Assembly (NCBI GenBank): GCA_947259305.1
Contig: CAMYML010000001.1
Span: 1-52,014 of the forward strand
Length of the DNA: 52,014 bases
Direction of reading: 5' to 3'
Origin: an uncultured Gammaproteobacteria bacterium
GTDB lineage: Bacteria; Pseudomonadota; Gammaproteobacteria; GCA-001735895
In this document: in pieces, positions 19,290 through 34,949 of the stretch
Position numbering within the stretch: the stretch's first letter is position 1
How the letters are laid out: every line of letters starts with the position of its first letter
Translations under genes and position numbers: made by a program
Notes under the pieces: model-generated
Told to the model about the DNA's origin: nothing
Database searches by the model: none
What the model saw: only the letters and a program-made list of their open reading frames with translations

Positions 19290-20318
19290 ATGACCGAAGC
19301 CAGCAAAATTCTAAACCTGACCCAGGTGGAAGACCTGACGCGGCGTGCGCTCGCCGCCTGCGGTGCGCACGGGCAACAACTGGAGCTCGCGGTGCAATCG
19401 GTGGTCGATGCCGAGTGCGATGGCATTCGTACCGTGGGCCTGGGTTATTTGCCGCTTTATTGTGGCCACCTGCAGGTTGGCAAAATCAATCGTGACGCCC
19501 GGCCCGAACATGCGCTGATTGCGCCCTCGGCCCTGCGTTCGATGGCTGACAGTGGCTTCGCGCACGCGGCCTTTGCCGAGGCCGAGCAGGCGTTTTACCA
19601 GTTAGCCCGGCAACAGGGCATTGCCGCGCTGTCGATCGTCGATTCCTACTCGGCCGGCGTGGTCGGCTGGTTCGCGCAACGCATAGCCGCTGCCGGTTTG
19701 ATCGGGATTGGCTTTGCCAATTCGCCCTCGGCGGTGGCGCCAGCGCCGGGCGCGAGTCCTTTCTTCGGTACCAACCCGATGGCGTTTGCGATTCCCAGGG
19801 GTGAAAAAGACCCGATCATCGCCGACATGGCGACCAGCCAGGTGGCGCTGGTGACGATAAAGAAAGCGGCCGCGGAAGGCCGTTCGATCCCGTCAGGATG
19901 GGGCTATGACAAGAACGGCAACGATACCACCGATGCCGCCGCGGTAATCGACGGTGGCGCGCTGGCGCCGGCTGGCGGTTACAAGGGTATGCTGCTGGGA
20001 TTGCTGGTCGATTTACTGGCCGGAGTACTGAGTGGGCCAAATTGCTCGTTTCAGGCTCCGGTATTCAAAAACAATACCGGTGGCGAACCCAGAGTGGGCC
20101 AATTTTTTATCGCGCTTTCGCCGGGCGGTTTCACCCCCGGAGGCGATCACGCCTACGCCGACCGGCTCGAAACCATGCTCACCGCGCTCGCGGCCGAGCC
20201 GGGCGTGCGCCTGCCGGGTTCACGCCGACATGAAGCCAGGCTCAGGGCTGAAACGCAGGGTGTCGAAGTGGCGCTGGAGTTGATCGACCGGCTCGAGGGT
20301 TTCGCCGCGGGCAGCTGA
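19290..20318 (+). CDS. Ldh_2-family (malate/L-lactate/sulfolactate dehydrogenase-like) oxidoreductase
   Basis: FGTNPMAFAIP, DMATS, GGYKG, VRLPG; AAGGAG RBS. Confidence 0.88.
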   Translation: MTEASKILNLTQVEDLTRRALAACGAHGQQLELAVQSVVDAECDGIRTVGLGYLPLYCGHLQVGKINRDARPEHALIAPSALRSMADSGFAHAAFAEAEQAFYQLARQQGIAALSIVDSYSAGVVGWFAQRIAAAGLIGIGFANSPSAVAPAPGASPFFGTNPMAFAIPRGEKDPIIADMATSQVALVTIKKAAAEGRSIPSGWGYDKNGNDTTDAAAVIDGGALAPAGGYKGMLLGLLVDLLAGVLSGPNCSFQAPVFKNNTGGEPRVGQFFIALSPGGFTPGGDHAYADRLETMLTALAAEPGVRLPGSRRHEARLRAETQGVEVALELIDRLEGFAAGS

Positions 20319-20370: not shown

Positions 20371-20520
20371 TTAAGGATCCGTGCCGATACCAACAGCGCC
20401 GGCGCCGGCCTGGGGCTATCGATCGTCAATACGATCGCGCAGATTCAGGCTGCCCGGCTGGTGTTGAGCGAGTCTGACCTGGGCGGGCTTTGCGTAACCG
20501 TTCAATTCAAAATTAACTGA
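20371..20520 (+). pseudogene. 3' stub of a sensor histidine kinase (end of HATPase_c)
   Basis: Manual translation LRIRADTNSAGAGLGLSIVNTIAQIQAARLVLSESDLGGLCVTVQFKIN*; G2 box GAGLGLSIV; no ATG/GTG/TTG back to the in-frame stop at 20329. Confidence 0.75.
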
Positions 20521-20572
20521 AAAAGACCGCGGATATCCGGTAAAATTCGCCCTTACCTGCGCCCGGCAGACA

Positions 20573-20827
20573 GCCCGAATATTGCGCCAGTCGGGCTCGG
20601 ACCTTGATATAAAATATTGAATAATTCGGAAAAACTGTATTTTCAAGTGAATTTTAAAGGTACAGTTTGCTACCGGCCAGAGCCCTATCCCGGCGCTGAC
20701 TTGTCCAGATACGCCTGGACTTGGGTTTCCCTCAAGCCATAGCTACAGCTATGGCTTTCGGTCCAGCCCGGCGTCCATCCGCATCTGTCCTGCCTCAGCA
20801 TCCGGGATACTGGTGCAATATCCGGGC
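20573..20827. mobile_element. MITE-like palindromic element, copy A (255 bp)
   Basis: TIRs 20573-20591 GCCCGAATATTGCGCCAGT / 20809-20827 ACTGGTGCAATATCCGGGC (17/19); flanks CA and TA; hairpin 20687-20808 with apex AAGCCATAGC-TACA-GCTATGGCTT. Confidence 0.75.
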
Positions 20828-20852
20828 TAGCGAATCAGAGCGGAATCTACCC

Positions 20853-22949
20853 ATGGCTTACAACAATCAGAGCGTTCGTGTCGGTGCCGATATCGGCGGG
20901 ACTTTTACCGATGTCGTGCTTGAAGTCGGCGCTCAGAAATTCAGCGCCAAGGTGTTGACCAATAATAGCGAACCTGAGCAGGCGATCATCGATGGCCTGT
21001 TCAAGGTAACGCAGATAGCCAAAGTTGGCCTGGAACATATCGATCAGTTGATCCACGGCACCACGCTGGCGACCAATTCTCTGATCGAGCGCCGTGGTGC
21101 CGAGACCGCCTTCATTACCAGCAAGGGTTTCCGCGACGTAATCGAAATGCGCACCGAGGGGCGTTTCGAGCAATACGATCTGAACCTGAGCCTGCCGCCG
21201 CCGTTGATATCGCGTGAACATCGCTATGTCGTCGATGGCCGTATCGCGGCCAGCGGGCGAGAGCTGGTTGCACTCGACGAGGGGCAATTGCTCGAGATTG
21301 CGGCGCGGATTGGTCAAGCTGGATACCAGAGTGTCGCCATCGGTTTCATACATTCCTATGTCAGCGCCGCGCACGAACGTCGCGCGCGTGAAATTCTGGC
21401 GGCCGAATTGCCCGCTATCAGCATTTCGATTTCGAGCGAGGTATCGCCGCAGATGCGCGAATTCGAGCGTTTCAACACGGTCTGCGCGAATGCATTCATC
21501 AAACCTCTGATGGCGTCATATCTGCAGCGCCTGGTCGATCGCTTCCGCGCCGAGGGCGGCGATTGCCCGGTGTTCATGATGCACTCCGGCGGGGGCCTGA
21601 TCTCGGTCGAAAGCGCGATCGAGTTTCCGGTGCGATTACTCGAGTCCGGACCCGCGGGCGGTGCGATTTACGCGGCCGACTATGCCGCCGGCTACGGGCT
21701 GGACAAGGTACTGTCCTACGACATGGGCGGCACCACCGCGAAGATTTGCATGATCGAAAACCGCGTGCCGAAGACTGCGCGTAGCTTCGAAGTGGCGCGC
21801 ACCTATCGTTTCAAGAAGGGTTCGGGCATGCCGGTATCGATCCCGGTCATCGAAATGGTCGAAATCGGCGCCGGTGGCGGTTCGCTGGGCTGGGTCGATG
21901 AAATGCACCAGATTCGCGTGGGCCCTGAAAGTGCCGGCTCGGAACCGGGGCCGGCCTGCTATGACCGTGGTGGTCAGCAACCGGCGGTGACCGACGCCGA
22001 CCTGGTGCTCGGTCGCCTGGATCCGGAAAGTTTCGCCGGCGGCGAAATAAAACTCGAAACGCAGAATTCGATCGCGGCACTGCAGCGGGCAATCGGTCAG
22101 CCACTCGAGATGGGCACCGAGACCGCTGCTGTCGGGGTATGCGAGGTGGTCGATGAAAACATGGCCAACGCGGCGCGCGTGCACGCGGTCGAGAATGGCA
22201 AGGAGCTCGCTGATTTTACTATGATTGCCTACGGTGGCGCCGCTCCGCTGCATGCCTGTCGCCTGTGCGAGAAGCTCGGCATCGACAGCCTGTTGATTCC
22301 GCCCGGTGCCGGCGTCGGTTCGGCGATCGGCTTTTTGCGCGCACCGTTCGGTTTCGAGGCGGTACGTGGCGCTTTTCTGCGCCTGAGTGAATTCGATGCC
22401 GACTGGACCAACCGCCTGATCGCCGAGCTCGATGCGGAAGCCCAGCGCTTTGCCCAGGCCGGTGGCGCGCAGATGGAGCTGCTGCGCGAAATCAAGGCTT
22501 ACATGCGCTACCAGGGGCAGGGCTGGGAAATCGTCGTGATGTTGCCTGACCGCGACTTCGTCGATGCCGACCAGCTCGAAATACGGCGGCGCTTCGAAGA
22601 TGAATATATTCGCCTGTTCGGACGTGCGCTCGATGGTCTCGACATCGAAATCATGACCTGGTCGGTGCAGGTGCGCAGCCACCTGGCCGAGCCCGCCACG
22701 GTTATGCCGGTGACTACTGAAAATCCCTGTTACAGCGATGAAAGGCGGCGTATTTTCGATGTGCGCGAGCAAGGTTTCGTCGATGCCGCGGTGTTCCAGC
22801 GCGAAGCGCTGGCTAGCGGTGACCTGATTTCCGGACCCGCGGTCATCATCGAAAGCGAAACCAGTACCATCGTGACCAACCGTTACCAGGCAATCATGCA
22901 ATCCGATGGTTGCCTGCTGCTGAGACTAAAGGGGAAAGAACATGACTGA
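20853..22949 (+). CDS. Hydantoinase A / 5-oxoprolinase-family subunit
   Basis: ADIGGTFTD, HGTTLATN, ESGPAGG, DMGGTTAK, IGAGGGS, GPESAGSEPGPACY. Confidence 0.93.
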   Translation: MAYNNQSVRVGADIGGTFTDVVLEVGAQKFSAKVLTNNSEPEQAIIDGLFKVTQIAKVGLEHIDQLIHGTTLATNSLIERRGAETAFITSKGFRDVIEMRTEGRFEQYDLNLSLPPPLISREHRYVVDGRIAASGRELVALDEGQLLEIAARIGQAGYQSVAIGFIHSYVSAAHERRAREILAAELPAISISISSEVSPQMREFERFNTVCANAFIKPLMASYLQRLVDRFRAEGGDCPVFMMHSGGGLISVESAIEFPVRLLESGPAGGAIYAADYAAGYGLDKVLSYDMGGTTAKICMIENRVPKTARSFEVARTYRFKKGSGMPVSIPVIEMVEIGAGGGSLGWVDEMHQIRVGPESAGSEPGPACYDRGGQQPAVTDADLVLGRLDPESFAGGEIKLETQNSIAALQRAIGQPLEMGTETAAVGVCEVVDENMANAARVHAVENGKELADFTMIAYGGAAPLHACRLCEKLGIDSLLIPPGAGVGSAIGFLRAPFGFEAVRGAFLRLSEFDADWTNRLIAELDAEAQRFAQAGGAQMELLREIKAYMRYQGQGWEIVVMLPDRDFVDADQLEIRRRFEDEYIRLFGRALDGLDIEIMTWSVQVRSHLAEPATVMPVTTENPCYSDERRRIFDVREQGFVDAAVFQREALASGDLISGPAVIIESETSTIVTNRYQAIMQSDGCLLLRLKGKEHD

Positions 22950-24609
22950 CGGCATTTCCAACGTCCATATGCAGGTCATGTGGAACCGCCTGATCGCGGT
23001 CGTCGAGGAACAGGCGCTGACGCTGGTGCGCACCGCGTTTTCGACCTCGGTACGTGAAGCCGGTGACGTCTCGGCCGGGGTTTTCGACCGCGACGGCTAC
23101 ATGATCGCGCAGGCCGTCACGGGTACCCCGGGGCACGTCAATGCGATGGCGGCGGCGGTGCGAAATTTTATCGACGATATCGGCGCAGACAATATTTTCG
23201 AGGGTGATTCCTATGTCACCAATGACCCGTGGAAGGGCACCGGGCACCTGCACGATTTTACCTTCGTCAATCCATCCTTTCGCGATGGCAGGCTGGTCGG
23301 TTATTTTGCCTGTACCGCGCACGTGGTCGACGTCGGCGGCCGTGGTTTCGGACCGGACGCGACCGAGATTTACGAGGAAGGGATTCTGATCCCGATCATG
23401 AAGTTCGCCGAACGCGGTGAAGTGAACCAGGTGCTGATCAACATCATTCGTAACAACGTACGCGAAAACGAACAGGTGGTTGGCGACCTTTTCTCGCTGT
23501 CGTCCTGTAACGATACCGGTCACCGGCGGTTGATGGATATGATGGACGAGTTTGCCATCGATGATCTGCAGGAACTGCGCGATTTCATTTTCGAGAATAG
23601 TCTGAGTGCAACCCTCGAGCGCCTCAGGGAATTGCCACCCGGTTCCTATGATAACGAGCTAACCGTAGACGGCTACGATAAGCCAGTGACGATGAAACTG
23701 CGGCTCGTCGTCTCCGAGCAGGGCGTGCTTGCCGACTTCGATGGCACCAGTGGCCTCAGCGAAAAGGGTATCAACGTGCCGCTGATCTACACTACCGCTT
23801 ATGCCTGTTACGCGCTCAAGTGCGCGCTCGCGCCGCAGATACCGAACAACCATGCGTCCCTGTCCCCTTTTAAAGTAACGGCGCCGGAAAATTGTATCCT
23901 CAATGCGAAACACCCGGCGCCGGTCGCGATTCGGCACGTGCTCGGACAATTCCTGCCCGATGCCGTGCTCGGGGCCCTGCACAAGATGTTACCCGACAGG
24001 GTGCCGGCCGAAGGCTCCAGCGCCTTGTGGATCATACAGCTCGGCGCGCGCCCAATCGATGCCCGCCAGGCAGTCGCGGATGAGCATGCGCAGAGTTCGG
24101 AAATTCTGATGTTCAACTCTGGGGGGACCGGAGCGCGCCCAACGCTGGACGGACTCAGCGCAACCGCGTTCCCGTCCGGCGTGCATACCATGTCAGCCGA
24201 GGTTACGGAGCATTTGGGGCCAATCACGATCTGGCGTAAGGAATTGCGTGAGGGTTCGGGCGGCGCCGGCGCGCAGCGCGGTGGCCTCGGCCAGGTGATC
24301 GAAATTTCGGCCAACACGGGTTACCGCATCTACATCAACGCGATGTTCGATCGCTGTCAGCACCCGGCCCGAGGGCGGGATGGCGGCTTGTCTGGCGCCG
24401 CCGGCGGCGTCAGTCTCGACGACGGCAGCTTGATGCAGTCCAAGGGCAAGCAGTGGATTCCGGACGATCGGCACCTGGTCTTGAACCTGCCGGGCGGGGG
24501 TGGCTACGGCGCTCCCGGCAAGCGTGATCGTGCGATGATTGCGCAGGATATCGAACGCCAGTACATAACTCTCGATCAGGCGAAGCGGGATTATGCCTAT
24601 GAAATCTGA
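22942..24609 (+). CDS. Hydantoinase B / 5-oxoprolinase-family subunit
   Basis: RTAFSTSVRE, TNDPWKGTGHLHD, HVVDVGG, EEG, PGGGGYG. Confidence 0.93.
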   Translation: MTDGISNVHMQVMWNRLIAVVEEQALTLVRTAFSTSVREAGDVSAGVFDRDGYMIAQAVTGTPGHVNAMAAAVRNFIDDIGADNIFEGDSYVTNDPWKGTGHLHDFTFVNPSFRDGRLVGYFACTAHVVDVGGRGFGPDATEIYEEGILIPIMKFAERGEVNQVLINIIRNNVRENEQVVGDLFSLSSCNDTGHRRLMDMMDEFAIDDLQELRDFIFENSLSATLERLRELPPGSYDNELTVDGYDKPVTMKLRLVVSEQGVLADFDGTSGLSEKGINVPLIYTTAYACYALKCALAPQIPNNHASLSPFKVTAPENCILNAKHPAPVAIRHVLGQFLPDAVLGALHKMLPDRVPAEGSSALWIIQLGARPIDARQAVADEHAQSSEILMFNSGGTGARPTLDGLSATAFPSGVHTMSAEVTEHLGPITIWRKELREGSGGAGAQRGGLGQVIEISANTGYRIYINAMFDRCQHPARGRDGGLSGAAGGVSLDDGSLMQSKGKQWIPDDRHLVLNLPGGGGYGAPGKRDRAMIAQDIERQYITLDQAKRDYAYEI

Positions 24610-24733
24610 ACCTGGCTCACATTTATAAGGGTACATCTGGAAATAACGGCTTAATCAAACCAACCTGCTGCCGAATAACTGCTATACATAGAATGCGAAT
24701 TCTGATTTTTGATTCGCTTGCACAGGTAGTCAT

Positions 24734-25879
24734 ATGTTGGTTCTCAAATCGAAACGCTGCTGGATTCTCCACCGCTGCCGGCTGTTCTCTGTTGTTGGTT
24801 TCATGCTGTGGGGCTTCCTCTTGCCCCAGGCGCAGGCCAACCAGGAAGGCGCCGACCGTTTTCGCATTTTAATCGTCTCCAGTTATCACCGCGAGTACCT
24901 GTGGTCGCAATCCACCAACGAGGGCGTAATGGCTGCGATGCTGCGCTACGGATTCCTCGAAGACGAGCAACAGGTCAGGCAATTTACCGAGCAAGATGCC
25001 GTCGCAAGCAAGCGCGCGATTTTGCAGAAAACCTGGATGGATACCAAACGCAAACGCAGCACATCCGATATTGCCGAAGTGACCGTCAAAATCATGCAGC
25101 AAATCGAGACATTCAAGCCCGACCTGGTCATGCTCGGTGATGATAATGCGGCCAATTACATCGGTAACCAGTTGCTGGATACTGAAATACCGGTGGTGTT
25201 CTGGGGGATAAACGGGTTACCGCTCAAATATGGACTCATCGATAGCATGGCTCGGCCCGGGCACAACATAACCGGGGTCTGGCAGGCGGGGTACTACCGG
25301 GAGGGCCTCGAACTGTTGAGTAAACTGGTGCCCGAGGCCAGAACATTTGCCATCCTGGCCTGCGATTCGGTAACCGCGAGAGCCAACATCAAACAACTCG
25401 AGGGATTGTATCGCAGCGGCAATTCACCCCTGGACCTGGTAGATGTGGTCAGCACCAACGACTTCGAAGAATTCAAGCGCAGGGCCAAGCAGCTTGAATC
25501 GCAGGTCGATGCTTTTTTCGTGCTTAATCATGACACCATGAAAGATGCGCGCGGCAATCACCTCGATATGCTCGAAGTGGGCCGTTGGTATCTCGAAAAT
25601 ATTCGCAAACCCGAAGCCTCCCATGAAGATCAATTCGTTCGCGAGGGTATGCTTTTAACTGCCAATGATTCCGGTTATAACCAGGGATACACGGCGTTTG
25701 AAATGGCGTTCGATATACTCGAACAAGGTCTCAGTCCCCACTTGATGCGCACCAAGACACCGGCGCATGGCCCGCTGATGGTGAATCGCAACCGCGCACG
25801 GGCGCTCGGGATTTCCTTATCCGAGCACGACTACCTGATCGACGAATTTGTAGATACTTCGGCTGCCCTGGAGCAATAA
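24734..25879 (+). CDS. ABC_sub_bind-like periplasmic binding/sensor protein
   Basis: Signal region ending AQA; ILIVSSYHREYLWS, MDTKR, DDNAA, PVVFWGIN, NITGV; start uncertain. Confidence 0.75.
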   Translation: MLVLKSKRCWILHRCRLFSVVGFMLWGFLLPQAQANQEGADRFRILIVSSYHREYLWSQSTNEGVMAAMLRYGFLEDEQQVRQFTEQDAVASKRAILQKTWMDTKRKRSTSDIAEVTVKIMQQIETFKPDLVMLGDDNAANYIGNQLLDTEIPVVFWGINGLPLKYGLIDSMARPGHNITGVWQAGYYREGLELLSKLVPEARTFAILACDSVTARANIKQLEGLYRSGNSPLDLVDVVSTNDFEEFKRRAKQLESQVDAFFVLNHDTMKDARGNHLDMLEVGRWYLENIRKPEASHEDQFVREGMLLTANDSGYNQGYTAFEMAFDILEQGLSPHLMRTKTPAHGPLMVNRNRARALGISLSEHDYLIDEFVDTSAALEQ

Positions 25880-28662
25880 TGCGGACCGGTCGTGAGCTGT
25901 CATCGGTCCCGGGATTCTTTCTGCGCGTACTGGCCGCGCTACTGGTTGTCAATCTCGCCTCGGCCGCCGTGTTAATTTTTATCGCCTATACCTTCAGTAG
26001 AGATTCGCTCTCCAGCCAGGCGAGAGAAACGATTACCCAGCAGGTAGCGGTATTTTCCGACTCCTTCGTCGATGTGCATTTAAGCGATATTCTGACGATG
26101 CAAAAGGCGCTCGAGAACAGTCAGAACATGGAAGACTATTTGCAGGCATCCAGTGCCGAACGCCTGATTCTGGGGCGCCGCATCGAACGCGAATTCATTC
26201 AGTTGCAAAAAGATAACCCGGATATTTACGGGCTTTATTACTACGATGAAAATGGTGAAATCAAGCTTGGTGCGAAAAATAAAACCCGCTTGATGATTGG
26301 CCGTGGCCAACCTGCTCCGGCATACGACAGTTTACTGCAGCAGGCAGAACCGCTATTCGATCAACTCGAAGCCACGCCGCTGGTGTTGTCCTCGGGCGGC
26401 ATGGAGTGGTTTATTCCTCCGCGTGATGCGACGATTATCGGCCCCTTCCAGCGCGAGGATGGAGGTTATTCGCTGCTTTCGGGCCTGGCCAAGCTGGACA
26501 AGAATACCGGATTGTTTGGTGGCATGCTGCTGGTGCATTTCAATCTGGACAACTGGCTTAGCGACCTCGGACGCATGCGCATTCAGGATCACTCGCCGGT
26601 ATGGGTATTGGCCGCGGATGGCCAGGTGTTGAAACAGCAGGATGACAATACGTCTCCTGATCATTTATACGATCCAATACCGGATTTACCCAGGCAACGC
26701 ATTACGGGGACGCAGTCGCTCGAGAGCAAAAAGGGACTTATTGTATTCCAGGACATTATGCTGGGAGACCAGGAGAACGCCTTGCGCCTGGTTTTTAGCG
26801 TTCCCTCCAGTTTGCTGGTACAGGGGCTCGATCCAGCGGTCGAGTTTTTTAGCTGGGTGCTGATTGTCTCGGTGATTTTGCTGGTGATTGTTTCGTATCT
26901 GATATCCCGTTTGCTGGTGCGCCCGTTCAACGAGCTTGCGGTCGCGCGCAACAAGCTCGTCACGGCACAACAACTGGCCCGAATCGGGCACTGGGACTGG
27001 GATCGATCCAGCTGCACCATGGGGCTCTCGGAAAACGCGGTTACCATACTCGGGTTGCAGCCGGAGCAGGGTCGTATCGAATTTGCGCAGCTGATGTCGA
27101 TGGTGCATGAGGACGACCGTCAAGCGCTGGCGGATCATGTCGAAAAGGCAATCAGCGATGGGGAATCAGCCAGTTTCGAGTATCGTCTCACGCCGAAGGA
27201 TAGTGACGAGATTTTTATTCACCAGGCGATCGATGTTATTGACAAGGATGGTTCCCGGGTAATCGGTACCGTTCAGGATATTACCGATCGGCGCAATTCC
27301 GAGGTCCGCATTCGCGAGCTGGCATATCATGATTCTGTTACCGGGCTTGCGAACCGCACCCTACTTGACGAAATTGCCGAGCACGCGCTGCAGATCGCCC
27401 GGCTGCGGAACGGCAAAATGGCGGTTGTGTTTCTCGACCTGGATCAATTCAAGCGCGTCAACGATACGCTGGGGCACGATGCAGGCGACGAATTGTTACG
27501 CCAGGTAGCCGACCGCCTTATCGAATGTGTGCGGCCCTCGGACACGGTATCGGCGGTGCCGATGAGCCTGGGTGGCGAGGATATGGTAGCCCGTCTCGGC
27601 GGAGACGAGTTTATTATCCTGCTGCCCAATCTTAACCATCACGATGATGCCATCGTTGTGGTCGAGCGCATCCGGAAATCGCTAAACCAGCCGTTCATGA
27701 TACAGGGTAAGGAACTACTTAGCGGCGGCAGTCTTGGCATCAGTATCTATCCCGAGCACGGGGATACGGTTAAAGACCTGTTACGCTTAGCCGACACCGC
27801 GATGTATTACGCCAAAGCCCAGGGCCGCAACCGCTACGTGCTCTACAATCCAAAAATCGATGCCCATCACCAGAATCGGCTGTCAATCGAAGTCGGGCTG
27901 AGCAGGGCCCTGGCCAACGAAGAGTTTGAACTTTATTACCAGCCCCGCTACAACATCAATGGTAACCAGATAAAGTCATTCGAAGCACTGCTGCGCTGGA
28001 ATGATCCCGACAAGGGAATGATCATGCCGGATGAATTCATTTATATCGCCGAGGAAAACGGATCCATCGTGCAAATCGGTGAATGGGTTTTCGAACAGGC
28101 CTGTCGACAGTTATCCGAATGGCAAAAAGAATTCTCCAGAGAACTGTCTATGTCGGTGAATCTGTCTCCGGTCCAGTTTATGTCCAGAAACCTGGTAGAA
28201 GACATCGCCAAGAAAATAAAAAAATCCGGCATTTCTCCGGGTAACCTCGAACTGGAATTGACCGAAAACGCGCTGTTCAAGGACATCGAATCCGGGGTGC
28301 GAATTTCCAAGCAGCTCAAGGCCCTGGGAATTACCTTGTCGATCGATGATTTTGGCACCGGGTACTCGTCGCTGCAATTGTTGAGCAGGCTGCCGGTCGA
28401 TACCTTAAAGATAGACAAGTCTTTTGTGCAAAACATGTTAGGCGAGGGAGATGACGAAATGATCGTGCAGTCGTTTATTTTACTGGGCCAGAATCTAGGG
28501 CTGAAAGTGGTTGCCGAGGGGGTTGAAGAGCTGGGCCAGTGGTTATCGTTAAAAGAACGTGGTTGCGACGAAGTACAGGGATACTTCTTTGCAAAACCCT
28601 GTAAACAGAAAGACGCCAGGCAACTGTTGATTGATCATTTCAAGATGGAGAAAGCATTATGA
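25879..28662 (+). CDS. Membrane c-di-GMP enzyme: TM, periplasmic (Cache-like) region, TM, PAS, GGDEF, EAL
   Basis: Two TM helices; RLGGDEF; EALLRW, ELTE, DDFGTGYSS, KIDKSF, EGVE, QGY all intact. Confidence 0.92.
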   Translation: MRTGRELSSVPGFFLRVLAALLVVNLASAAVLIFIAYTFSRDSLSSQARETITQQVAVFSDSFVDVHLSDILTMQKALENSQNMEDYLQASSAERLILGRRIEREFIQLQKDNPDIYGLYYYDENGEIKLGAKNKTRLMIGRGQPAPAYDSLLQQAEPLFDQLEATPLVLSSGGMEWFIPPRDATIIGPFQREDGGYSLLSGLAKLDKNTGLFGGMLLVHFNLDNWLSDLGRMRIQDHSPVWVLAADGQVLKQQDDNTSPDHLYDPIPDLPRQRITGTQSLESKKGLIVFQDIMLGDQENALRLVFSVPSSLLVQGLDPAVEFFSWVLIVSVILLVIVSYLISRLLVRPFNELAVARNKLVTAQQLARIGHWDWDRSSCTMGLSENAVTILGLQPEQGRIEFAQLMSMVHEDDRQALADHVEKAISDGESASFEYRLTPKDSDEIFIHQAIDVIDKDGSRVIGTVQDITDRRNSEVRIRELAYHDSVTGLANRTLLDEIAEHALQIARLRNGKMAVVFLDLDQFKRVNDTLGHDAGDELLRQVADRLIECVRPSDTVSAVPMSLGGEDMVARLGGDEFIILLPNLNHHDDAIVVVERIRKSLNQPFMIQGKELLSGGSLGISIYPEHGDTVKDLLRLADTAMYYAKAQGRNRYVLYNPKIDAHHQNRLSIEVGLSRALANEEFELYYQPRYNINGNQIKSFEALLRWNDPDKGMIMPDEFIYIAEENGSIVQIGEWVFEQACRQLSEWQKEFSRELSMSVNLSPVQFMSRNLVEDIAKKIKKSGISPGNLELELTENALFKDIESGVRISKQLKALGITLSIDDFGTGYSSLQLLSRLPVDTLKIDKSFVQNMLGEGDDEMIVQSFILLGQNLGLKVVAEGVEELGQWLSLKERGCDEVQGYFFAKPCKQKDARQLLIDHFKMEKAL

Positions 28663-29975
28663 TTCCGCAGCGCAGGAAGTTTCTCGGGGTGGCTACAGCG
28701 ACGATTGCCGGCAGTTTTCTGATCCCAAAATTTGCCCATGCGCAAAAAAAACATCGCCTTACGATACTGCAATGGAACCATTTCGTACCCCAGTTCGACC
28801 GCTGGTTCGACGAGGTTTTTGCCAAACAATGGGGCGATGCCAACGATACCGAGGTCGTTATCGACCGGGTTGGCATGACCAGCTTGAACAGTCGTGCACA
28901 GGCTGAAATCCAGCGCGGCAGAGGGCACGATCTGTTCATGTTTTTACGACCCCCGCCGACCTACGAGGATTATGTTGTCGACCATAGCGACGTGTATCAG
29001 GAATGCGAGCGATATGTCGGCAAGCCTAACCAGATCGCGATCAACAGCACCTACAACCCGGCCACGCGCAAGTATTTCGGATTCTCCGACAGTTACGTGC
29101 CGGATCCGATTAACTATCGCAAGGATCTGTGGGACGACGTCGGCGTATATCCCGACAGCTGGGATAACATACGCAAGGGAGGCGCCGCAATTTTCCAAAA
29201 GCACAAGTCGCCACTAGGTATCGGTCTGGCACCCGAACTGGATTCCAACATGGCGCTGAGATCGCTGATGCACAGCTTCGGTGCCTCGGTGCACGACCGG
29301 GATGGCAGGATCGTACTGGATAGCCCCGAAACAGTTGAAGCGGTCAAGTTCATGAAGACACTCTACCAGGAGGCAATGACCGAAGAAGTGTTCAGCTGGG
29401 ATCCTTCTTCCAACAATCGAATGATGCTGGCGGGCCACGGCTCGCTGACCTTGAATGCAATATCGATAACGCGCACTGGCGAGTCGCAGAAGATACCGAT
29501 TGCCGAGCAGATACATCTGGCACCGGCCGCGCGCGGTCCGGCTGGTCAGATCGGGCTGATGCACCTGATGCATGCCTATGTGATCTGGAAATTTGCCCGC
29601 AATATCGATGGCGCAAAGCAATTTCTGGTCGACTATGTCAAAAATTTCCGCGATGCTTTCCTGGCCAGCGGTTTTTACAATTTACCCTGTTTCCCGGATA
29701 CGGTGCCTGATCTGAAGTCACTGGTCGCGGTTGATAAAAATGCGACGCCGGAGGATAAATACAGTTTTTTGTCGCAGGCTGAGGATTGGACCACGACAAT
29801 TGGCTATCCCGGATTCGCCAATGCCGTAATCGATGAAACCTTCGGTGAGTGGATAATATCGGATATGTTCGCGGCGGCGGCGCGCGATCGAAGCTCCCCG
29901 GAACAGGCGGTTAAAATTGCCACCGGCAAGGTCAACGATATTTACGCCAAGTGGAAGGCTGCCGGCAAAGTCTAG
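28659..29975 (+). CDS. Tat-exported extracellular solute-binding protein (family-1-like), no cognate permease nearby
   Basis: QRRKFLG twin-arginine signal, AHA cleavage; WNHFVP, YRKDLW, SWDPSSNN. Confidence 0.82.
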   Translation: MIPQRRKFLGVATATIAGSFLIPKFAHAQKKHRLTILQWNHFVPQFDRWFDEVFAKQWGDANDTEVVIDRVGMTSLNSRAQAEIQRGRGHDLFMFLRPPPTYEDYVVDHSDVYQECERYVGKPNQIAINSTYNPATRKYFGFSDSYVPDPINYRKDLWDDVGVYPDSWDNIRKGGAAIFQKHKSPLGIGLAPELDSNMALRSLMHSFGASVHDRDGRIVLDSPETVEAVKFMKTLYQEAMTEEVFSWDPSSNNRMMLAGHGSLTLNAISITRTGESQKIPIAEQIHLAPAARGPAGQIGLMHLMHAYVIWKFARNIDGAKQFLVDYVKNFRDAFLASGFYNLPCFPDTVPDLKSLVAVDKNATPEDKYSFLSQAEDWTTTIGYPGFANAVIDETFGEWIISDMFAAAARDRSSPEQAVKIATGKVNDIYAKWKAAGKV

Positions 29976-29991
29976 CAATAGCCGATTCGTT

Positions 29992-30846
29992 TCAGCGCAG
30001 CGAGGCGCGCGCGTATTCAAGATAGATCTCGCGCAGGTTGCGGCTTAACTTCCCCGGTATACCATCACCGATTTCCTGGCCGTCGATTTCAACCACCGGC
30101 AGCACATAACTCGAGGCGGCGCTGATAAAAGCCTCGTCCGCCTGCAGGGCTTCCTCCAGGGTAAATCTGTTTTCCAGCAGGCGCAGGCCGTGCTTGCCGC
30201 ACAGCGCTACGACCGCGCGACGCGTTACGCCGGGCAGGATATCGTTACTCAACGGGCGCGTCAGTATCAAATCACCCTTGACGATGAAAAAACTGGTGCT
30301 GCCGCATTCCGTGACGTAGCCGTCGGCATCGACCATCAGGGCTTCGTAGGCACCGGCATCGGCGGCCGCTTTTTTCGCCAGCACCTGGGCCAGCAGGTTG
30401 ACCGATTTGATATCGCGCCGCGCCCAGCGGATATCGGCGGTGCTCGCAAGCCGGATGCCGCTTTCGGCAGCCTGATTTTCGCTCGGAGCCTTGGGCTGGG
30501 TAAACATGAAAACGCTAGGCTCGATGCCCTCGGGCCAGACGAAATCGCGCTCGGCAACGCCGCGGGTTACCTGCATGTACACCAGGCCTTCGTCGAGCCG
30601 ATTGAGCTCGACCAGTTTGCGAAAGGCTTCGAGGATCTGCTGCTGGCTGAGCGGCGAAACGATCTCCAGCTTTGCCAGCGAGTTGAAATAGCGCTGCATA
30701 TGATGCTCGAAATCGACCAGCTTGCCGTCGAGAACGCCGGCGACCTCGTAAATCGCGTCGCCGAAATTGACAGCACGGTCGAAGATGGAGATTTTGGCCT
30801 GATCGGCCGGCAGGTAGTCGCCATTTAGAAATACAATACGGCTCAT
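29992..30846 (-). CDS. dat: D-amino-acid transaminase (PLP class IV)
   Basis: ISIFDRAVNFGDAIYEV, YMQVTRG, DIRWARRDIKSVNLL, ILPGVTR. Confidence 0.85.
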   Translation of the reverse strand: MSRIVFLNGDYLPADQAKISIFDRAVNFGDAIYEVAGVLDGKLVDFEHHMQRYFNSLAKLEIVSPLSQQQILEAFRKLVELNRLDEGLVYMQVTRGVAERDFVWPEGIEPSVFMFTQPKAPSENQAAESGIRLASTADIRWARRDIKSVNLLAQVLAKKAAADAGAYEALMVDADGYVTECGSTSFFIVKGDLILTRPLSNDILPGVTRRAVVALCGKHGLRLLENRFTLEEALQADEAFISAASSYVLPVVEIDGQEIGDGIPGKLSRNLREIYLEYARASLR

Positions 30847-30893
30847 TCGCTTAACACCTTTCAATAATCGGGCAAAATGCTAGCATACATCGC

Positions 30894-32357
30894 ATGTCAC
30901 AGACTCGTCGCCAACAACTTGCCGCCCGCTTTCGCGAATTCCTGCCCAGCGAAAGCGTGATCGATCAGCCGACTTCGCTAACCGCCTACGAATGCGATGG
31001 CCTGAGCGCCTACCGCGAGCAGCCGCTGCTGGTGCTGTTGCCGGAAAACACCGAGCAGGTGCAGCAAATCATGCGGGTTTGTCATGAGCAGCGCCTGCCG
31101 GTGGTCAGCCGTGGCGCCGGTACCAGCCTGTCGGGTGGGGCCCTGCCGCATGCCGAGGGCGTGGTGCTGAGCCTGGCCAAGATGAATCGTATATTGCAGG
31201 TCGACGAGTTAGCGCGCAGTGCCGTGGTCGAGCCGGGCGTGCGCAACCTGGCGATATCCGAAGCGGTCCAGGCGAAAGGCCTTTATTACGCCCCCGATCC
31301 CTCGTCCCAGATCGCCTGTTCTATCGGCGGCAACGTCGCCGAAAACGCCGGCGGGGTGCACTGCCTGAAATACGGCCTTACCCTGCACAATATACTGGCG
31401 CTCAAGGTCGTCGGCGCCGACGGCGAGCTGTTCGAAATCGATCAACGCGCCTTGCACGGCGATGGCTACGATCTGATGCCGTTGCTGGTGGGTTCCGAAG
31501 GTATGCTCGGCATCGTCGTCGAGGTCACCGTCAAACTGCTGCCGATACCGCTGTGCGCGCGCGTGGTCATGGGCGTATTCGACTCGGTTGAAACGGCCGG
31601 CGCCAGCGTCGCCGCGATTATCGCCGAGGGCATTATTCCCGCCGGTATCGAAATGATGGACAATCCGGCGATTCGCGCCGCCGAGGATTTCGTGCATGCC
31701 AACTACCCGGTCGATGCCGAAGCGATTCTGATTTGCGAACTCGACGGCACCGAGCAGGAAGTGAGCGCGCAGATCGAACGGGTGGAGCAGGTGCTGAAGG
31801 CGGGTGGCGCGGTCGAAACCCGCCTCGCCAAAGACGAAGCCGAGCGCCTCCTGTTCTGGTCCGGGCGCAAGGCCGCGTTTCCCGCGGTCGGCAGGATTTC
31901 GCCCGATTATTACTGCATCGACGGCACCATCCCACGCAAGTCGCTGGCTGCGGTACTCGCCGGGGTGCGCCAGCTCTCGGAGCAATACGGCTTGCGCGTG
32001 GCCAACGTGTTTCATGCGGGCGACGGTAACCTGCACCCGCTGATCCTGTACGACGCCAATAACGAAGGCGAGCTCGAAAAGACCGAGGAACTGGGCAGCA
32101 AGATCCTGCAGCTGTGTATCCAGCATGGCGGCACGATTACCGGCGAGCATGGCGTCGGCGTCGAAAAACTCGGCGAAATGTGTATCCAGTTCAGCGAGCC
32201 CGAACGCAACCAGTTCCACGCAATCCGGGAATGTTTCGATCCGCTGAAAATACTGAACCCGGGCAAAGCGATACCCACCCTGGCGCGCTGCGCCGAACAC
32301 AATGCGATGCACGTGCACGACGGCAAACTGCCGTTCCCTGAACTGGAACGCTTTTAG
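30894..32357 (+). CDS. glcD: Glycolate oxidase subunit GlcD
   Basis: YECDGLSAYR, YAPDPSSQIACSIGGNVAENAGGVHCLKYG, HAGDGNLHP, GEHGVG. Confidence 0.95.
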   Translation: MSQTRRQQLAARFREFLPSESVIDQPTSLTAYECDGLSAYREQPLLVLLPENTEQVQQIMRVCHEQRLPVVSRGAGTSLSGGALPHAEGVVLSLAKMNRILQVDELARSAVVEPGVRNLAISEAVQAKGLYYAPDPSSQIACSIGGNVAENAGGVHCLKYGLTLHNILALKVVGADGELFEIDQRALHGDGYDLMPLLVGSEGMLGIVVEVTVKLLPIPLCARVVMGVFDSVETAGASVAAIIAEGIIPAGIEMMDNPAIRAAEDFVHANYPVDAEAILICELDGTEQEVSAQIERVEQVLKAGGAVETRLAKDEAERLLFWSGRKAAFPAVGRISPDYYCIDGTIPRKSLAAVLAGVRQLSEQYGLRVANVFHAGDGNLHPLILYDANNEGELEKTEELGSKILQLCIQHGGTITGEHGVGVEKLGEMCIQFSEPERNQFHAIRECFDPLKILNPGKAIPTLARCAEHNAMHVHDGKLPFPELERF

Positions 32358-32425
32358 TGATCTGTAAAATGCCAGGCTGGCCGCATCGGGGTAACACGGG
32401 AGCGCGCCGAGGACGGTGCTGAGAT

Positions 32426-33496
32426 ATGCAGACTGAAATTGACGACGTCAGCATCGAGGACGAGCTTCGTACCCAGATCCGGGCAGTCGCCGCCAACGGC
32501 GCCGAAATTGAAATTATCGGCGGCGGCAGCAAACGTTTTTACGGCCAGGCCATCGAGGCCCTGCCGATCGATGTTTCCGCGCATAGCGGCATCATCGACT
32601 ACGATCCGGCGGAACTCGTCATTACGCTGCGCGCCGGCTGCAAGCTGCTTGACGTAGAGGCGTTGCTGGCGCAAAACCGCCAGATGTTCGGCTTCGAGCC
32701 GCCCTGTTTCGGCGTAGATGCAACCATCGGCGGCATGGTTGCTACCGGTCTGGCGGGCCCAAGACGCGCCTATGCAGGCAGCATCCGAGATTTTGTGCTC
32801 GGGGTGAAAATGCTCGACGGGCGCGCTGAAGTGCTGCAGTTCGGCGGGCGCGTGATCAAAAACGTGGCGGGCTTCGACGCTTCGCGCCTGATGGTCGGCG
32901 CGCTTGGCACCCTCGGTATTATTCTCGAGGTTTCGATTCGGGTCATTCCGGTCTATGAAACCGAGTTGACGCTGAGCTACGAGCATGCCAGCGCCGACGA
33001 ACACATCCGCTGGATCAACGGCCTCGGTTCCAAACCTTATCCGATTTCGGCTTCGCAGTGGCAGGCCGGGCGCAGCCAACTGCGGCTCTCGGGTAGCGAG
33101 CAGGGCGTGTCGCAGGCGGCAAAACTGCTTGGCGGCGATTCGATTGAACCCGGCTGGCAGGCCTTGAAAGAGCAGCAGCTGGATTTTTTCGATCCCAAAC
33201 GGCCGCTTAGCCGAATCTCGCTGCCGCCGACGAGCCCCGACCTGTTGCCCGATACAGCGCAATTGATCGAATGGGGCGGCGCGGAACGCTGGTGCTGCGG
33301 TGACATCGACGTCGTCGCCCTGCGCGAACAGGTCGCAAGCGCTGGCGGCGGCCTGTGCGCGTTTCGTGGACACGCCGCCGAGGTGCCGATATTTCACCCG
33401 CTGCCGGCGGCGATGCTGAAACTGCAGCGTAATATCAAATCGAGCTTCGATCCTGCCGGTATCTTCAATCCCGGCAAGATTTATCCCGGGCTGTAG
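32426..33496 (+). CDS. glcE: Glycolate oxidase subunit GlcE
   Basis: GGGSKRFYG, YDPAELVIT, FGGRVIKNVAGFD, FDPAGIFNPG; follows glcD. Confidence 0.95.
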   Translation: MQTEIDDVSIEDELRTQIRAVAANGAEIEIIGGGSKRFYGQAIEALPIDVSAHSGIIDYDPAELVITLRAGCKLLDVEALLAQNRQMFGFEPPCFGVDATIGGMVATGLAGPRRAYAGSIRDFVLGVKMLDGRAEVLQFGGRVIKNVAGFDASRLMVGALGTLGIILEVSIRVIPVYETELTLSYEHASADEHIRWINGLGSKPYPISASQWQAGRSQLRLSGSEQGVSQAAKLLGGDSIEPGWQALKEQQLDFFDPKRPLSRISLPPTSPDLLPDTAQLIEWGGAERWCCGDIDVVALREQVASAGGGLCAFRGHAAEVPIFHPLPAAMLKLQRNIKSSFDPAGIFNPGKIYPGL

Positions 33497-33741
33497 CCCG
33501 CATATTGCATGAAGGCGGTACAAACTATAAGGATACCGGACTAATAAATTGAGAGATGAAAGATATTTTGCCAAAGTTTTCAAAATACAATTTGCACCTG
33601 AACAAAATCAGGAAAAATCTGGCTGCCAATCCTGAACGATCCCCCTTGATGCATAGTTATTACTATGCATCGGCGTGCGATCGTCCAGCCTTGTTTGCCA
33701 GATTTTCCCTGAGTTTCGTTCCCTTCATGCAATATACGGGC
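33496..33741. mobile_element. MITE-like palindromic element, copy B (246 bp), with TA target duplication
   Basis: TIRs 33496-33515 / 33722-33741 (19/20); TA at 33494-95 and 33742-43; hairpin 33600-33721 with apex GATGCATAGT-TATT-ACTATGCATC. Confidence 0.85.
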
Positions 33742-33746
33742 TAATC

Positions 33747-34949
33747 ATGCAAACCAATTTCGCGCCAAAATTCAAGCAGGGTCCGCATGCCGAAACCGCG
33801 GAAGCGATCCTGCGCAAGTGCGTGCACTGCGGCTTCTGTAATGCAACCTGTCCGACCTACCAATTGCTGGGCGACGAGCTCGATGGCCCGCGCGGCCGCA
33901 TCTACCAGATGAAGCAGTATTTCGAGGGCGCACCCGCTAACGTGGAAATGCTGAAGCACCTCGATCGTTGCCTGACCTGCCGCGCCTGTGAAACCACCTG
34001 TCCGTCGGGTGTCAACTACAGCCACCTGCTCGAAATCGGCAAGCAGGCGATCGAACGGGAACTGCCGCGACCGGCCTGGGACCGATTGCGCCGCTGGGGT
34101 ATCGTACGCTTTATCAATTCGGGCTGGCTGTTCGCCCTGTCGATTCGAATCGGGCAGACGTTTGCGCCGCTGCTGCCGGGCAAGCTCAGGCAATCGGTAC
34201 CACCCCGACAGCAGCCGCTTGCGCGCAGCGTGGCGCGGCATGAACGCAAGGTCCTGATGCTTGCGGGCTGTGTGCAGTCCGCGCTGACGCCGAATACCAA
34301 CAACTGCGCGGTCAACCTGTTCGATCGCCTCGGAATCGAAGTCATCGAGTTACCGCAGACGCTGTGCTGCGGCGCCGCGGCCATGCATACCTCGGACGCC
34401 GACTACGGGTTGCGCCAGGTAAAACAGCTGATCGACGCCTGGTGGCCGCATATCGAGACCGGGGCCGAGGCGATTGTCGTGAGCGCGACCGGCTGCGGCG
34501 TCAGCGTCAAGGACTACGGGCGCCTGCTGGCCGAAGATGCGGCTTATGCCGACAAGGCGGCCAGGGTCAGCGCGCTCTATCGCGACCTGATCGAGATCGT
34601 CGAAGTCGAAATCGAAAGCGTCGACCTGCCGCAAAAACCGGCCACGCGCGTCGCGGTGCATACGCCCTGCACCATGCAGCATGGCCTCGGTCTCAATAAC
34701 CGCGTGGAGCGATTGCTGGCGAGGCTGGGCTACGACATCTGCCGGGTCGAGGAGGCGCATCTATGCTGCGGCTCGGCCGGCACCTATTCGATGCTGCAGC
34801 CCGCCATGTCCGCGCAACTGCGTGACAACAAGATAAGAGCCCTTGGCGTGGATGCACCGGAACTGATCGCGACCGCGAATATTGGCTGCCAGCTACAGCT
34901 TGCCCAGGGCAACCAGGTGGCGGTCGTACACTGGATAGAATTGCTGTAA
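33747..34949 (+). CDS. glcF: Glycolate oxidase iron-sulfur subunit GlcF
   Basis: CVHCGFCNATCP, CLTCRACETTCP, two CCG motifs, TANIGC. Confidence 0.95.
   Translation: MQTNFAPKFKQGPHAETAEAILRKCVHCGFCNATCPTYQLLGDELDGPRGRIYQMKQYFEGAPANVEMLKHLDRCLTCRACETTCPSGVNYSHLLEIGKQAIERELPRPAWDRLRRWGIVRFINSGWLFALSIRIGQTFAPLLPGKLRQSVPPRQQPLARSVARHERKVLMLAGCVQSALTPNTNNCAVNLFDRLGIEVIELPQTLCCGAAAMHTSDADYGLRQVKQLIDAWWPHIETGAEAIVVSATGCGVSVKDYGRLLAEDAAYADKAARVSALYRDLIEIVEVEIESVDLPQKPATRVAVHTPCTMQHGLGLNNRVERLLARLGYDICRVEEAHLCCGSAGTYSMLQPAMSAQLRDNKIRALGVDAPELIATANIGCQLQLAQGNQVAVVHWIELL

Follow-up and report, generated by a model that had tools for sequence, protein, structure and literature searches.

In a 52,014-nt stretch of the genome of an uncultured gammaproteobacterium (contig CAMYML010000001.1 of assembly GCA_947259305.1, positions 1 to 52,014; hereafter the window), two elements of about 250 bp, A and B, are members of two subfamilies of one superfamily of MITEs, or transposable elements of the miniature inverted-repeat kind. 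The best overall explanation, to which we give a probability of about 80%, is that this superfamily derives from insertion sequences of the IS1380 family, that its members fold into a three-way junction, and that copies in sense orientation relative to flanking genes are the ones retained. A preliminary description, made from the letters of the window alone, had proposed two copies of one non-autonomous mobile element. The mobile family proved real, with further copies in the same genome and in relatives, and with empty sites in two genomes (G066, G058) and a metagenome contig; A and B themselves, however, are not two copies diverged in place, as the copies in their own genome fall into three groups.

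Direct reading of the window gives A as starting with GCCCGAATATTGC at 20573 and ending with TGCAATATCCGGGC at 20827, and B as starting with GCCCGCATATTGC at 33496 and ending with TGCAATATACGGGC at 33741, with the start GCCCGnATATTGC and the end TGCAATATnCGGGC common to both. As first described, both have the end motif, an AT-rich loop closed by a stem, and a 122-nt hairpin; in each, the hairpin loop stops exactly 80 nt from the right end. Each hairpin is capped by a perfect 10-bp stem of the pattern CATAG(C/T)-N4-(G/A)CTATG, namely AAGCCATAGC-TACA-GCTATGGCTT in A (CATAGC at 20738-20743, loop at 20744-20747) and GATGCATAGT-TATT-ACTATGCATC in B (loop at 33658-33661). The parts of the two copies, with helices named P1 to P3, are:

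20570..20830 (+): copy A with flanking 4-mers, A-type; left ACAG at 20570-20573 (decayed), right CTAG at 20827-20830
20574-20826 (+): A, element proper
20573..20591 (+): A, left terminal inverted repeat, the 5' arm of helix P1; base 20573 is part of the flanking 4-mer
20593..20603 (+): A, 5' arm of helix P2, which closes the AT-rich loop; both-sided changes are seen in 5 of the 9 P2 pairs
20604..20674 (+): A, AT-rich loop, fast diverging, containing AAACTGTA...TACAGTTT as an inner stem, and a TGATATAA box similar to an extended -10
20675..20685 (+): A, 3' arm of helix P2
20687..20808 (+): A, P3, the imperfect hairpin of 122 nt, with its apex stem and loop at 20734-20757
20809..20827 (+): A, right terminal inverted repeat, the 3' arm of P1; base 20827 is part of the flanking CTAG
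33493..33744 (+): copy B with flanking 4-mers, B-type; left GTAG at 33493-33496, right CTAA at 33741-33744
33497-33740 (+): B, element proper
33496..33515 (+): B, left terminal inverted repeat, the 5' arm of P1
33517..33525 (+): B, 5' arm of helix P2 (GGTACAAAC)
33526..33589 (+): B, AT-rich loop, fast diverging
33590..33598 (+): B, 3' arm of helix P2
33600..33721 (+): B, P3, the hairpin of 122 nt, with its apex at 33648-33671
33722..33741 (+): B, right terminal inverted repeat, the 3' arm of P1

The 122-nt hairpins fold far better than shuffled sequence, at -58.5 kcal/mol against a shuffle mean of -33.9 for A (z -6.7) and -55.7 against -25.2 for B (z -9.6). Aligned without gaps from the right end, A and B are identical at 60 of 142 bases, chiefly in the end repeat and apex, and only 17 base pairs are in common register (A has 43 pairs, B 48), 8 of which differ on both sides. 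The resemblance between the two is one of conserved gross shape, not of fine register. The earlier statement that shape and spacing are conserved while internal sequence is not therefore stands for the overall shape, the apex and the 80-nt spacing, and fails for the fine register; likewise, the arms do differ and yet pair with themselves, but this cannot be read as drift within one element, since the comparison spans two subfamilies. A scan of the window for the end motif (at most 2 mismatches) gave five matches, four of them the ends of A and B, a number near chance (2.36 expected; 12 of 100 shuffles reach five), and so it is the paired arrangement and the genome-wide family, not the motif count, that establish the feature.

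With up to 2 mismatches allowed, the end motif with an adjoining TA occurs 64 times in the window's own genome (368 contigs, 4.29 Mb, 92.8% complete). Models for nhmmer were built from five A-like and from four B-like copies; there the A model matched 24 times and the B model 16 times, counting the reverse-strand self-matches of the hairpins. The three groups of copies are an A type that includes A, a B type that includes B, and a GC-rich third type (on contigs C129 and C204) that has only the end repeat in common with the other two. The genomes compared are metagenome-assembled genomes (MAGs) of uncultured Gammaproteobacteria; in a draw of 41 relatives, 10 have the A type and 12 the B type, all belonging to the window's genus except for one 22-nt match. 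The end pattern TAGCCYGNATATTGCA occurs in 34 of 79 genomes of the order, own genome included, and with that genome excluded in 31 of 60 from the window's genus and in 1 of 2, 1 of 14 and 0 of 2 from sister genera; the reversed pattern, as a control, was absent from every one of the 79. The superfamily is present in dozens of copies per genome and nearly restricted to one genus of uncultured Gammaproteobacteria. The 25 loci checked occupy unrelated sites, without orthologous flanks, and a blastn search of a plasmid collection with both copies gave no match.

Copies range from 107 to 407 bp and include deletion derivatives and nested inserts, while the terminal inverted repeats measure 19-20 bp. 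In two derivatives of 134 bp (L107 and L108, in genome G041), which represent two independent lineages, precisely the hairpin is missing between the CCTGA direct repeats at its base, the kind of loss that slippage across a palindrome typically leaves. The third type (C129:4582-4780 and C204:6447-6659 in the own genome) lacks the AT loop. B-type copies bear, nested at fixed points in their hairpin arms, a second small repeat that is GC-rich, about 72-75 bp long and provided with a core hairpin of the CCCCGCAGGGGC type (C48:2376-2686, C242:3744-4054, C109:11249-11599 and C110:8086-8327 in the own genome; L093-L097 and L105 in G041); it has the look of a distinct REP-like module with the MITE as its target. 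Hairpin arms of the A type carry two 15-nt inserts, together or singly (alignment A2, columns 177-191 and 260-274; e.g. L049, L028, L042), which are related to one another as reverse complements but are not placed opposite each other in the hairpin. Two elements that abut in G005 (C312:13334-13363), with flanking target bases in common, show insertion beside an earlier copy or into its duplication.

RNAalifold returned the same three-way junction for 27 A-type and 18 B-type copies, with P1 formed by the end repeats, P2 closing the AT loop and P3 the long hairpin. End-helix cells are paired in 93.9-97.4% of cases in these copies, and A-type cells overall in 95.2%, against 24-39% with the partner slid. 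Both-sided changes affect 28 of 62 pairs in the whole A-type structure (10.0 +/- 1.8 when shuffled), 18 of 47 in the A-type internal helices alone (6.0 +/- 1.4), and 18 of 72 in the whole B-type structure (4.7 +/- 1.5); none of 500 shuffles reached the observed value in any of the three, although these controls overstate significance because the copies are related by descent. Covariation in the end helix could also arise if each subfamily had taken both of its ends from its own insertion sequence variant, an account that does not extend to the internal helices. Meanwhile the AT loop, with a G+C content of 34% across the family, has a pairwise identity of 0.46 against 0.83 for the hairpin in the A type and 0.44 against 0.91 in the B type (0.79 against 0.94 within G041 for the B type). 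It drifts 3-10 times faster than the hairpin, but is inherited and common to recent copies; rewriting of the loop at each transposition was considered and rejected, loop sequence being common to copies in G023 and G041. The suggestion that both fold and length are under selection thus survives in its first half, the fold being kept by compensatory changes, and not in its second, given the range of lengths. Of 27 whole A copies, 26 fold better as the reverse strand, as do all 27 A hairpins taken alone and all 8 B copies, an asymmetry that we do not use as evidence because it depends on 2-4 consensus G-U/A-C positions per family and on shared descent.

Copies also have a preferred orientation, defined here by the order left repeat, AT loop, hairpin, right repeat. 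We sampled 75 unique copies (from G000, G005, G023, G041 and others), calling the strands of flanking genes with a crude codon-score caller trained on this genome's long open reading frames (ORFs) and setting unclear calls aside; both flanks were called in 58. Between co-directional genes, 27 copies are sense and 3 antisense (binomial p 8e-6), the ratio being 11:0 for the A type and 16:3 for the B type, while 17 copies lie between convergent and 11 between divergent genes. One of the three antisense copies (L126) has a run of N as its right flank (L126:10184-20000; G041:C1, ~577.9-587.7 kb), which makes its call unreliable. An earlier co-directional subset of 25 loci without orthologous flanks gave 23 sense and 2 antisense by first crude calls. 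A replication-strand bias, as seen in single-strand transposons, was tried as the cause and rejected, since 20-kb GC-skew regions of G041 were concordant in 11 cases and discordant in 9. Given a symmetric flanking target, no link to GC skew and no orthologous flanks, the bias points to selection after insertion or to coupling with transcription. Some IS1380 members carry strong outward promoters, as noted in PMC9330008 for the members it treats, and such promoters would supply a rationale for the sense orientation. A promoter-like site lies upstream of A at 20517-20546, the number of such sites being near chance.

These features of fold and orientation can tentatively be read another way, in which the MITE has been co-opted as a structured cis-acting RNA module within operons, acting in processing, stability, translational coupling or as a read-out promoter, and in which host selection and not transposition maintains the fold and the sense orientation. 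Such a role is compatible with a MITE origin and competes only over the reason for the constraint; we consider it possible, though rather unlikely. It would account for the covariation of internal helices, for the sense orientation of 27 of 30 copies between co-directional genes, for a hairpin that is 91% identical across species against 44% for the loop, and for the presence of B-type copies in the same glcE-like/glcF-like junction in two species although nearer relatives are empty there. There is precedent in Correia elements, cut by RNase III at their end repeats, and in ERIC, which unmasks an RNase E site (both as summarized in a section of PMC10969869), and in bcr1, for which PMC3184786 describes compensatory changes at the RNA level. 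Set against it, no Rfam family matches; the better-folding strand is the antisense one, though this rests on 2-4 consensus positions per family; hairpin-less copies persist; and the 28 copies between convergent or divergent genes have no obvious common mRNA role. Furthermore, many of the double changes are transversion pairs (GC to UA, in 10 sequences at one pair) without wobble intermediates, which equally fits copying from arm to arm.

That last observation leads to an unlikely alternative, namely that the arms match through repair at the DNA level and not through selection. The arms would then be made to match by mismatch correction in snap-back DNA or by template switching in quasipalindromes. 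The double changes do include transversion pairs with few wobble intermediates. In the end helix of the B type, 8 of 19 pairs show both-sided changes and none a one-sided change, and the same rare variants occur at both ends, such as AGCT for ATAT in the copy in G061. However, the end-helix arms are about 220 bp apart, and repair of this kind leaves unexplained both the 83-91% conservation of the hairpin beside a near-saturated loop and the orientation bias.

Returning to the MITE explanation, the target site is informative as to the parent. TA adjoins both sides of B and only the right side of A (the left being CA), and was initially taken as the duplication itself; TA is present, but as the core of a longer one. 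Over 52 copies, the base just outside the left TA is C in 31 and T in 13, TA itself stands on either side in 46-50, and the base just outside the right TA is G in 40. TA flanks both sides in 93 of 112 complete elements, and 61 of these 93 have exact 4-bp repeats, 52 being CTAG and 9 being TTAA, CTAA or TTAG; in G041 the repeats are exact in 17 of 20 copies (14 CTAG, and one each of CTAA, TTAG and TTAA). Exact repeats that are not palindromic (CTAA/CTAA, TTAG/TTAG) cannot come from a 2-bp duplication. The duplicated target is thus a 4-bp YTAR site, which in most cases reads CTAG and frequently is a stop codon. It follows that the element proper is CC(C/T)G...C(A/G)GG, and that the 'covarying' first and last bases of the alignments are the duplication. 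Upstream of B, a FAD-binding gene has as its stop codon the TAG within the left GTAG; in the closest relative, G066, the corresponding site is empty and reads CTCTAGATG, with flanks 95% identical. G061 carries another B-type copy at this stop codon. Nearer relatives have the site empty, and G058 reads CTGTAGCCATG where G061 reads CTGTAG-CC...GG-CTAGCCATG. A metagenome contig (run X4) joins 33486 to 33737, skipping B. The empty sites are also compatible with a 4-bp duplication and one mismatch.

We looked for a parent in metagenomes and in the 61 genomes of the genus. A metagenome scan with CTAGCCTGCATATTGCAC matched at least 120 stretches, 80 of which were taken with their flanks. Among the matches listed, 92 ends were examined, 50 with a partner 79-565 bp away and 42 without; about 24 of those 42 have less than 700 nt on the inner side. 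When the first 330 nt of 17 partnerless ends, again among the matches listed, were inspected by eye, a transposase start was seen in L183 alone. This contig reads CTAG-CCTGCATATTGCACCA and opens an ORF 88 nt on, whose first 113 residues match positions 2-90 of NF033539 (IS1380 family transposase; E 1.7e-21) as well as PF13701 (E 1e-29). A second case, in G023, is a 982-bp element with inverted copies at its ends (L314:1399-2380; CTAG-CCCGCATATCTCACCA...GCGGG-CTAG), containing the N-terminus of an IS1380 transposase (NF033539 positions 3-96, E 5.4e-25) followed by unrelated sequence. It is bounded by the end repeat of the third type, CCCGC(A/T)TATCTCACC, and is an internally deleted insertion sequence with the ends of the third MITE type. 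Because both are truncated, L183 and L314 fall under the full-length cut-off of NF033539. A transposase with matching ends, as the preliminary description asked for, is thus represented by truncated IS1380 genes.

Matches to NF033539 occur in 17 of the 61 genus genomes, 6 of them over the cut-off. An intact-looking IS1380 element (L284; 394 residues on model positions 52-419) has ends CCCGAATGTTTCA-CTAG that are related and not identical to those of the MITE, and other full or near-full IS1380 elements of the genus end in TTAA-CCCGAATTATGCA...-TTAG, TTAA-CCCAATCATTGCA and CTAG-TCC...GGA-CTAA. The MITE tip, CC(C/T)GNATATTGCA, resembles the genus IS1380 ends CCCGAATGTTTCA, CCCGAATTATGCA, CCCAATCATTGCA and CCTGAATCCGTGA; CC tips are a trait of the IS1380 family. 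Since ends, target and duplication length are all in line with IS1380, the likely parent is an element of that family, and by these sequence comparisons the superfamily apparently derives from IS1380-family (piggyBac-related) insertion sequences. The relationship to piggyBac is reflected in PMC10813416, where, in the part bearing on this point, IS1380 transposases form the piggyBac outgroup. Past the end repeat, L183 can still be aligned at its left end to the left portion of A-type copies (GCCTT..GATATAA, with TATAAT in the insertion sequence and TATAAC in the A consensus), which suggests that the AT loop may have descended from the transposase promoter and leader of the parent.

It is very unlikely that the elements are instead MITEs of the IS630/Tc1-mariner type, duplicating TA at CTAG. 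IS630 elements target CTAG and duplicate TA, a habit with which the flank profile of the 52 copies agrees, and 7 of the 61 genus genomes encode DDE_3 transposases, among them the copy-rich G005, G023 and G041. We rejected this reading, however, on the exact non-palindromic 4-bp repeats (CTAA, TTAG) around copies, on the unrelated end repeats of the 14 DDE_3 loci from those 7 genomes, and on the IS1380 transposase genes found within the family ends instead; DDE_3 had no match in the own genome. IS630-like elements with other end repeats, one of them CTAG-flanked, coexist with the MITEs in G041, G023 and G005 (L062, L064, L066, L072). The parallel drawn earlier to the msr-msd RNA of a retron, which extends to layout only (inverted repeats around a small stem-loop region and a long hairpin), was rejected as next to impossible, the reverse transcriptase model RVT_1 having no match in the 92.8%-complete own genome, Rfam none even at E up to 1, and the copies standing in dozens at unrelated sites with target duplications and empty sites.

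Several observations weigh against the IS1380-derived MITE as we describe it. Both transposase genes within family ends are truncated, the ORF of L183 ending at 135 residues on a low-coverage contig; NF033539 has no match in the own genome; and no intact autonomous element with identical ends (CTAG-CCTGCATATTGCAC...) was found in the own genome, in G041 or in the metagenome stretches listed. Across the 20 contigs and about 40 copies of G041, no pair of ends is more than 411 bp apart. The apex motif of the hairpin was not found in the fetched IS1380 loci (L284-L315), and L107 and L108 retain ends and duplications without P3, so that P3 may be dispensable for insertion. As to the 4-bp duplication, 32 of the 93 TA-flanked elements have inexact repeats, mismatches are about 10 times commoner on the outer base than on the base adjacent to the element, an excess that simple decay does not predict, and the model requires two changes each for A (ACAG/CTAG) and B (GTAG/CTAA). 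A simple scan found no sigma-70-like promoter inside A or B, and one terminator-like site, in the A hairpin at 20703-20720, a number no more than chance. To these are added the shared descent behind the shuffle controls and the crudeness of the strand calls.

With these points weighed, we propose the following for the MITE. The element, in the order left terminal repeat, P2 stem around an AT loop of about 65 nt, 122-nt P3 and right terminal repeat, would retain in that loop what is probably a residue of the promoter and leader of the parent's transposase gene. As is strongly indicated, a transposase acting in trans would insert the element at YTAR and duplicate 4 bp. Along lineages that still transpose, the end repeats, P2 and P3 would be filtered for pairing, the filter being the folding of single strands of the element into the three-way junction, while the AT loop would drift nearly freely. 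After insertion between co-directional genes, a copy would survive mainly when aligned with transcription, either because the reverse orientation is polar or produces antisense RNA, or because the forward orientation brings a read-out promoter. A further step, which we offer tentatively and would not bet on, is that the fold is maintained as a mobile structured cis-regulatory RNA or DNA module in operons, spread by IS1380/piggyBac-type transposition and retained in sense orientation only, or else that the hairpin is an undescribed cis requirement of IS1380-type transposition.

The surroundings of the two copies offer some further detail. B lies between a FAD_binding_4 gene and a CCG/4Fe-4S gene, downstream of a FAD-oxidase gene, the three forming a glcD/E/F-like set by domain content. 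In the region 33722-33749, the right repeat of B contains a mini-frame of five codons (ATG CAA TAT ACG GGC TAA) that stops 2 nt ahead of the ATG of the CCG/4Fe-4S gene at 33747, and might represent a repair of translational coupling after insertion. Upstream of A, a short open frame of about 67 codons (20400-20519) follows an Ldh_2 gene that ends at 20318; by eye its translation resembles the C-terminal end of a histidine kinase ATPase domain (GxGLGLSIV...), and it may be a gene remnant.

The family is real and apparently so far undescribed, as first suspected, among MITEs for which folded transcripts, compensatory changes and orientation-dependent effects are already known. Rfam gave nothing at gathering score over the window and nothing at E up to 1 on four copies. 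Full-text literature, with candidates judged by title and abstract and outside ISfinder and subscription journals, yielded no description of this family or of IS1380-derived MITEs, and a 2024 MITE review (PMC10969869) has no mention of IS1380. The work brings to light a MITE superfamily whose likely parent family, IS1380, comprises bacterial relatives of piggyBac and is one for which we found no described MITEs. The material is informative in that two subfamilies share an architecture with differing arms, with dozens of independent insertions in about 30 species, empty sites and a 27:3 sense ratio, and the system allows one to ask whether IS1380/piggyBac-type transposition requires the internal structure or the host selects for it in mRNA. 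Were the hairpin indeed a cis-regulatory module or a cis requirement, this would be the first IS1380-derived MITE superfamily with selected internal structure. On the practical side, the repeats break assemblies of this uncultured genus, and annotation of MAGs is affected by insertions at stop codons and inside operons, here between glcE-like and glcF-like genes.

Among the closest known systems is the IS1380 family itself (ISEcp1, IS1247, ISPme1), with CC...GG tips that the MITE shares by way of the genus IS1380 ends, truncated IS1380 transposase genes inside MITE-family ends, and a short duplication, 4 bp here against a 5-bp direct repeat for IS1247 (Table 2 of PMC3281130). The MITE differs in lacking a transposase, in its length of 107-407 bp against about 1.7 kb, in a strictly YTAR target, and in its 122-nt hairpin, not seen in the fetched IS1380 loci. 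Correia elements (CREE/NEMIS) of Neisseria are likewise small intergenic elements that are bounded by terminal inverted repeats, have a target containing TA and exist in many copies, with no transposase known for them; in mRNA their end repeats pair and are cut by RNase III, and some of the elements carry promoters (from the Correia passages of PMC10969869). They have no sequence relation to the present family, measure about 100-200 bp and lack a conserved asymmetric internal hairpin, whereas the MITE here has a 4-bp duplication and an identifiable parent family. The bcr1 elements of the Bacillus cereus group are MITE-like, with short flanking direct repeats and compensatory changes that keep the fold, as far as the account in PMC3184786 is drawn on here; they are known to be transcribed, and they have 5-bp direct repeats, about 155 bp and a Firmicutes host.

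ERIC/IRU elements of enterobacteria are also imperfect palindromes that form an RNA hairpin and affect the flanking mRNA when inserted at 3' ends, in the terms of the ERIC section of PMC10969869. ERIC is, however, a single whole-length hairpin of about 127 bp, in contrast to the three-way junction and fast-evolving AT loop described here, and by eye no similarity to the ERIC sequence is evident. The effect of ERIC on mRNA depends on orientation. Finally, eukaryotic piggyBac-derived MITEs share a 4-bp palindromic duplication centred on TA (TTAA in theirs, CTAG/YTAR in the present family) as well as tips of the CC...GG type, such tips and the TTAA target being characteristic of piggyBac, whose mechanism involves hairpin intermediates and precise excision; the elements described here differ from them in their bacterial host and in preferring CTAG over TTAA.

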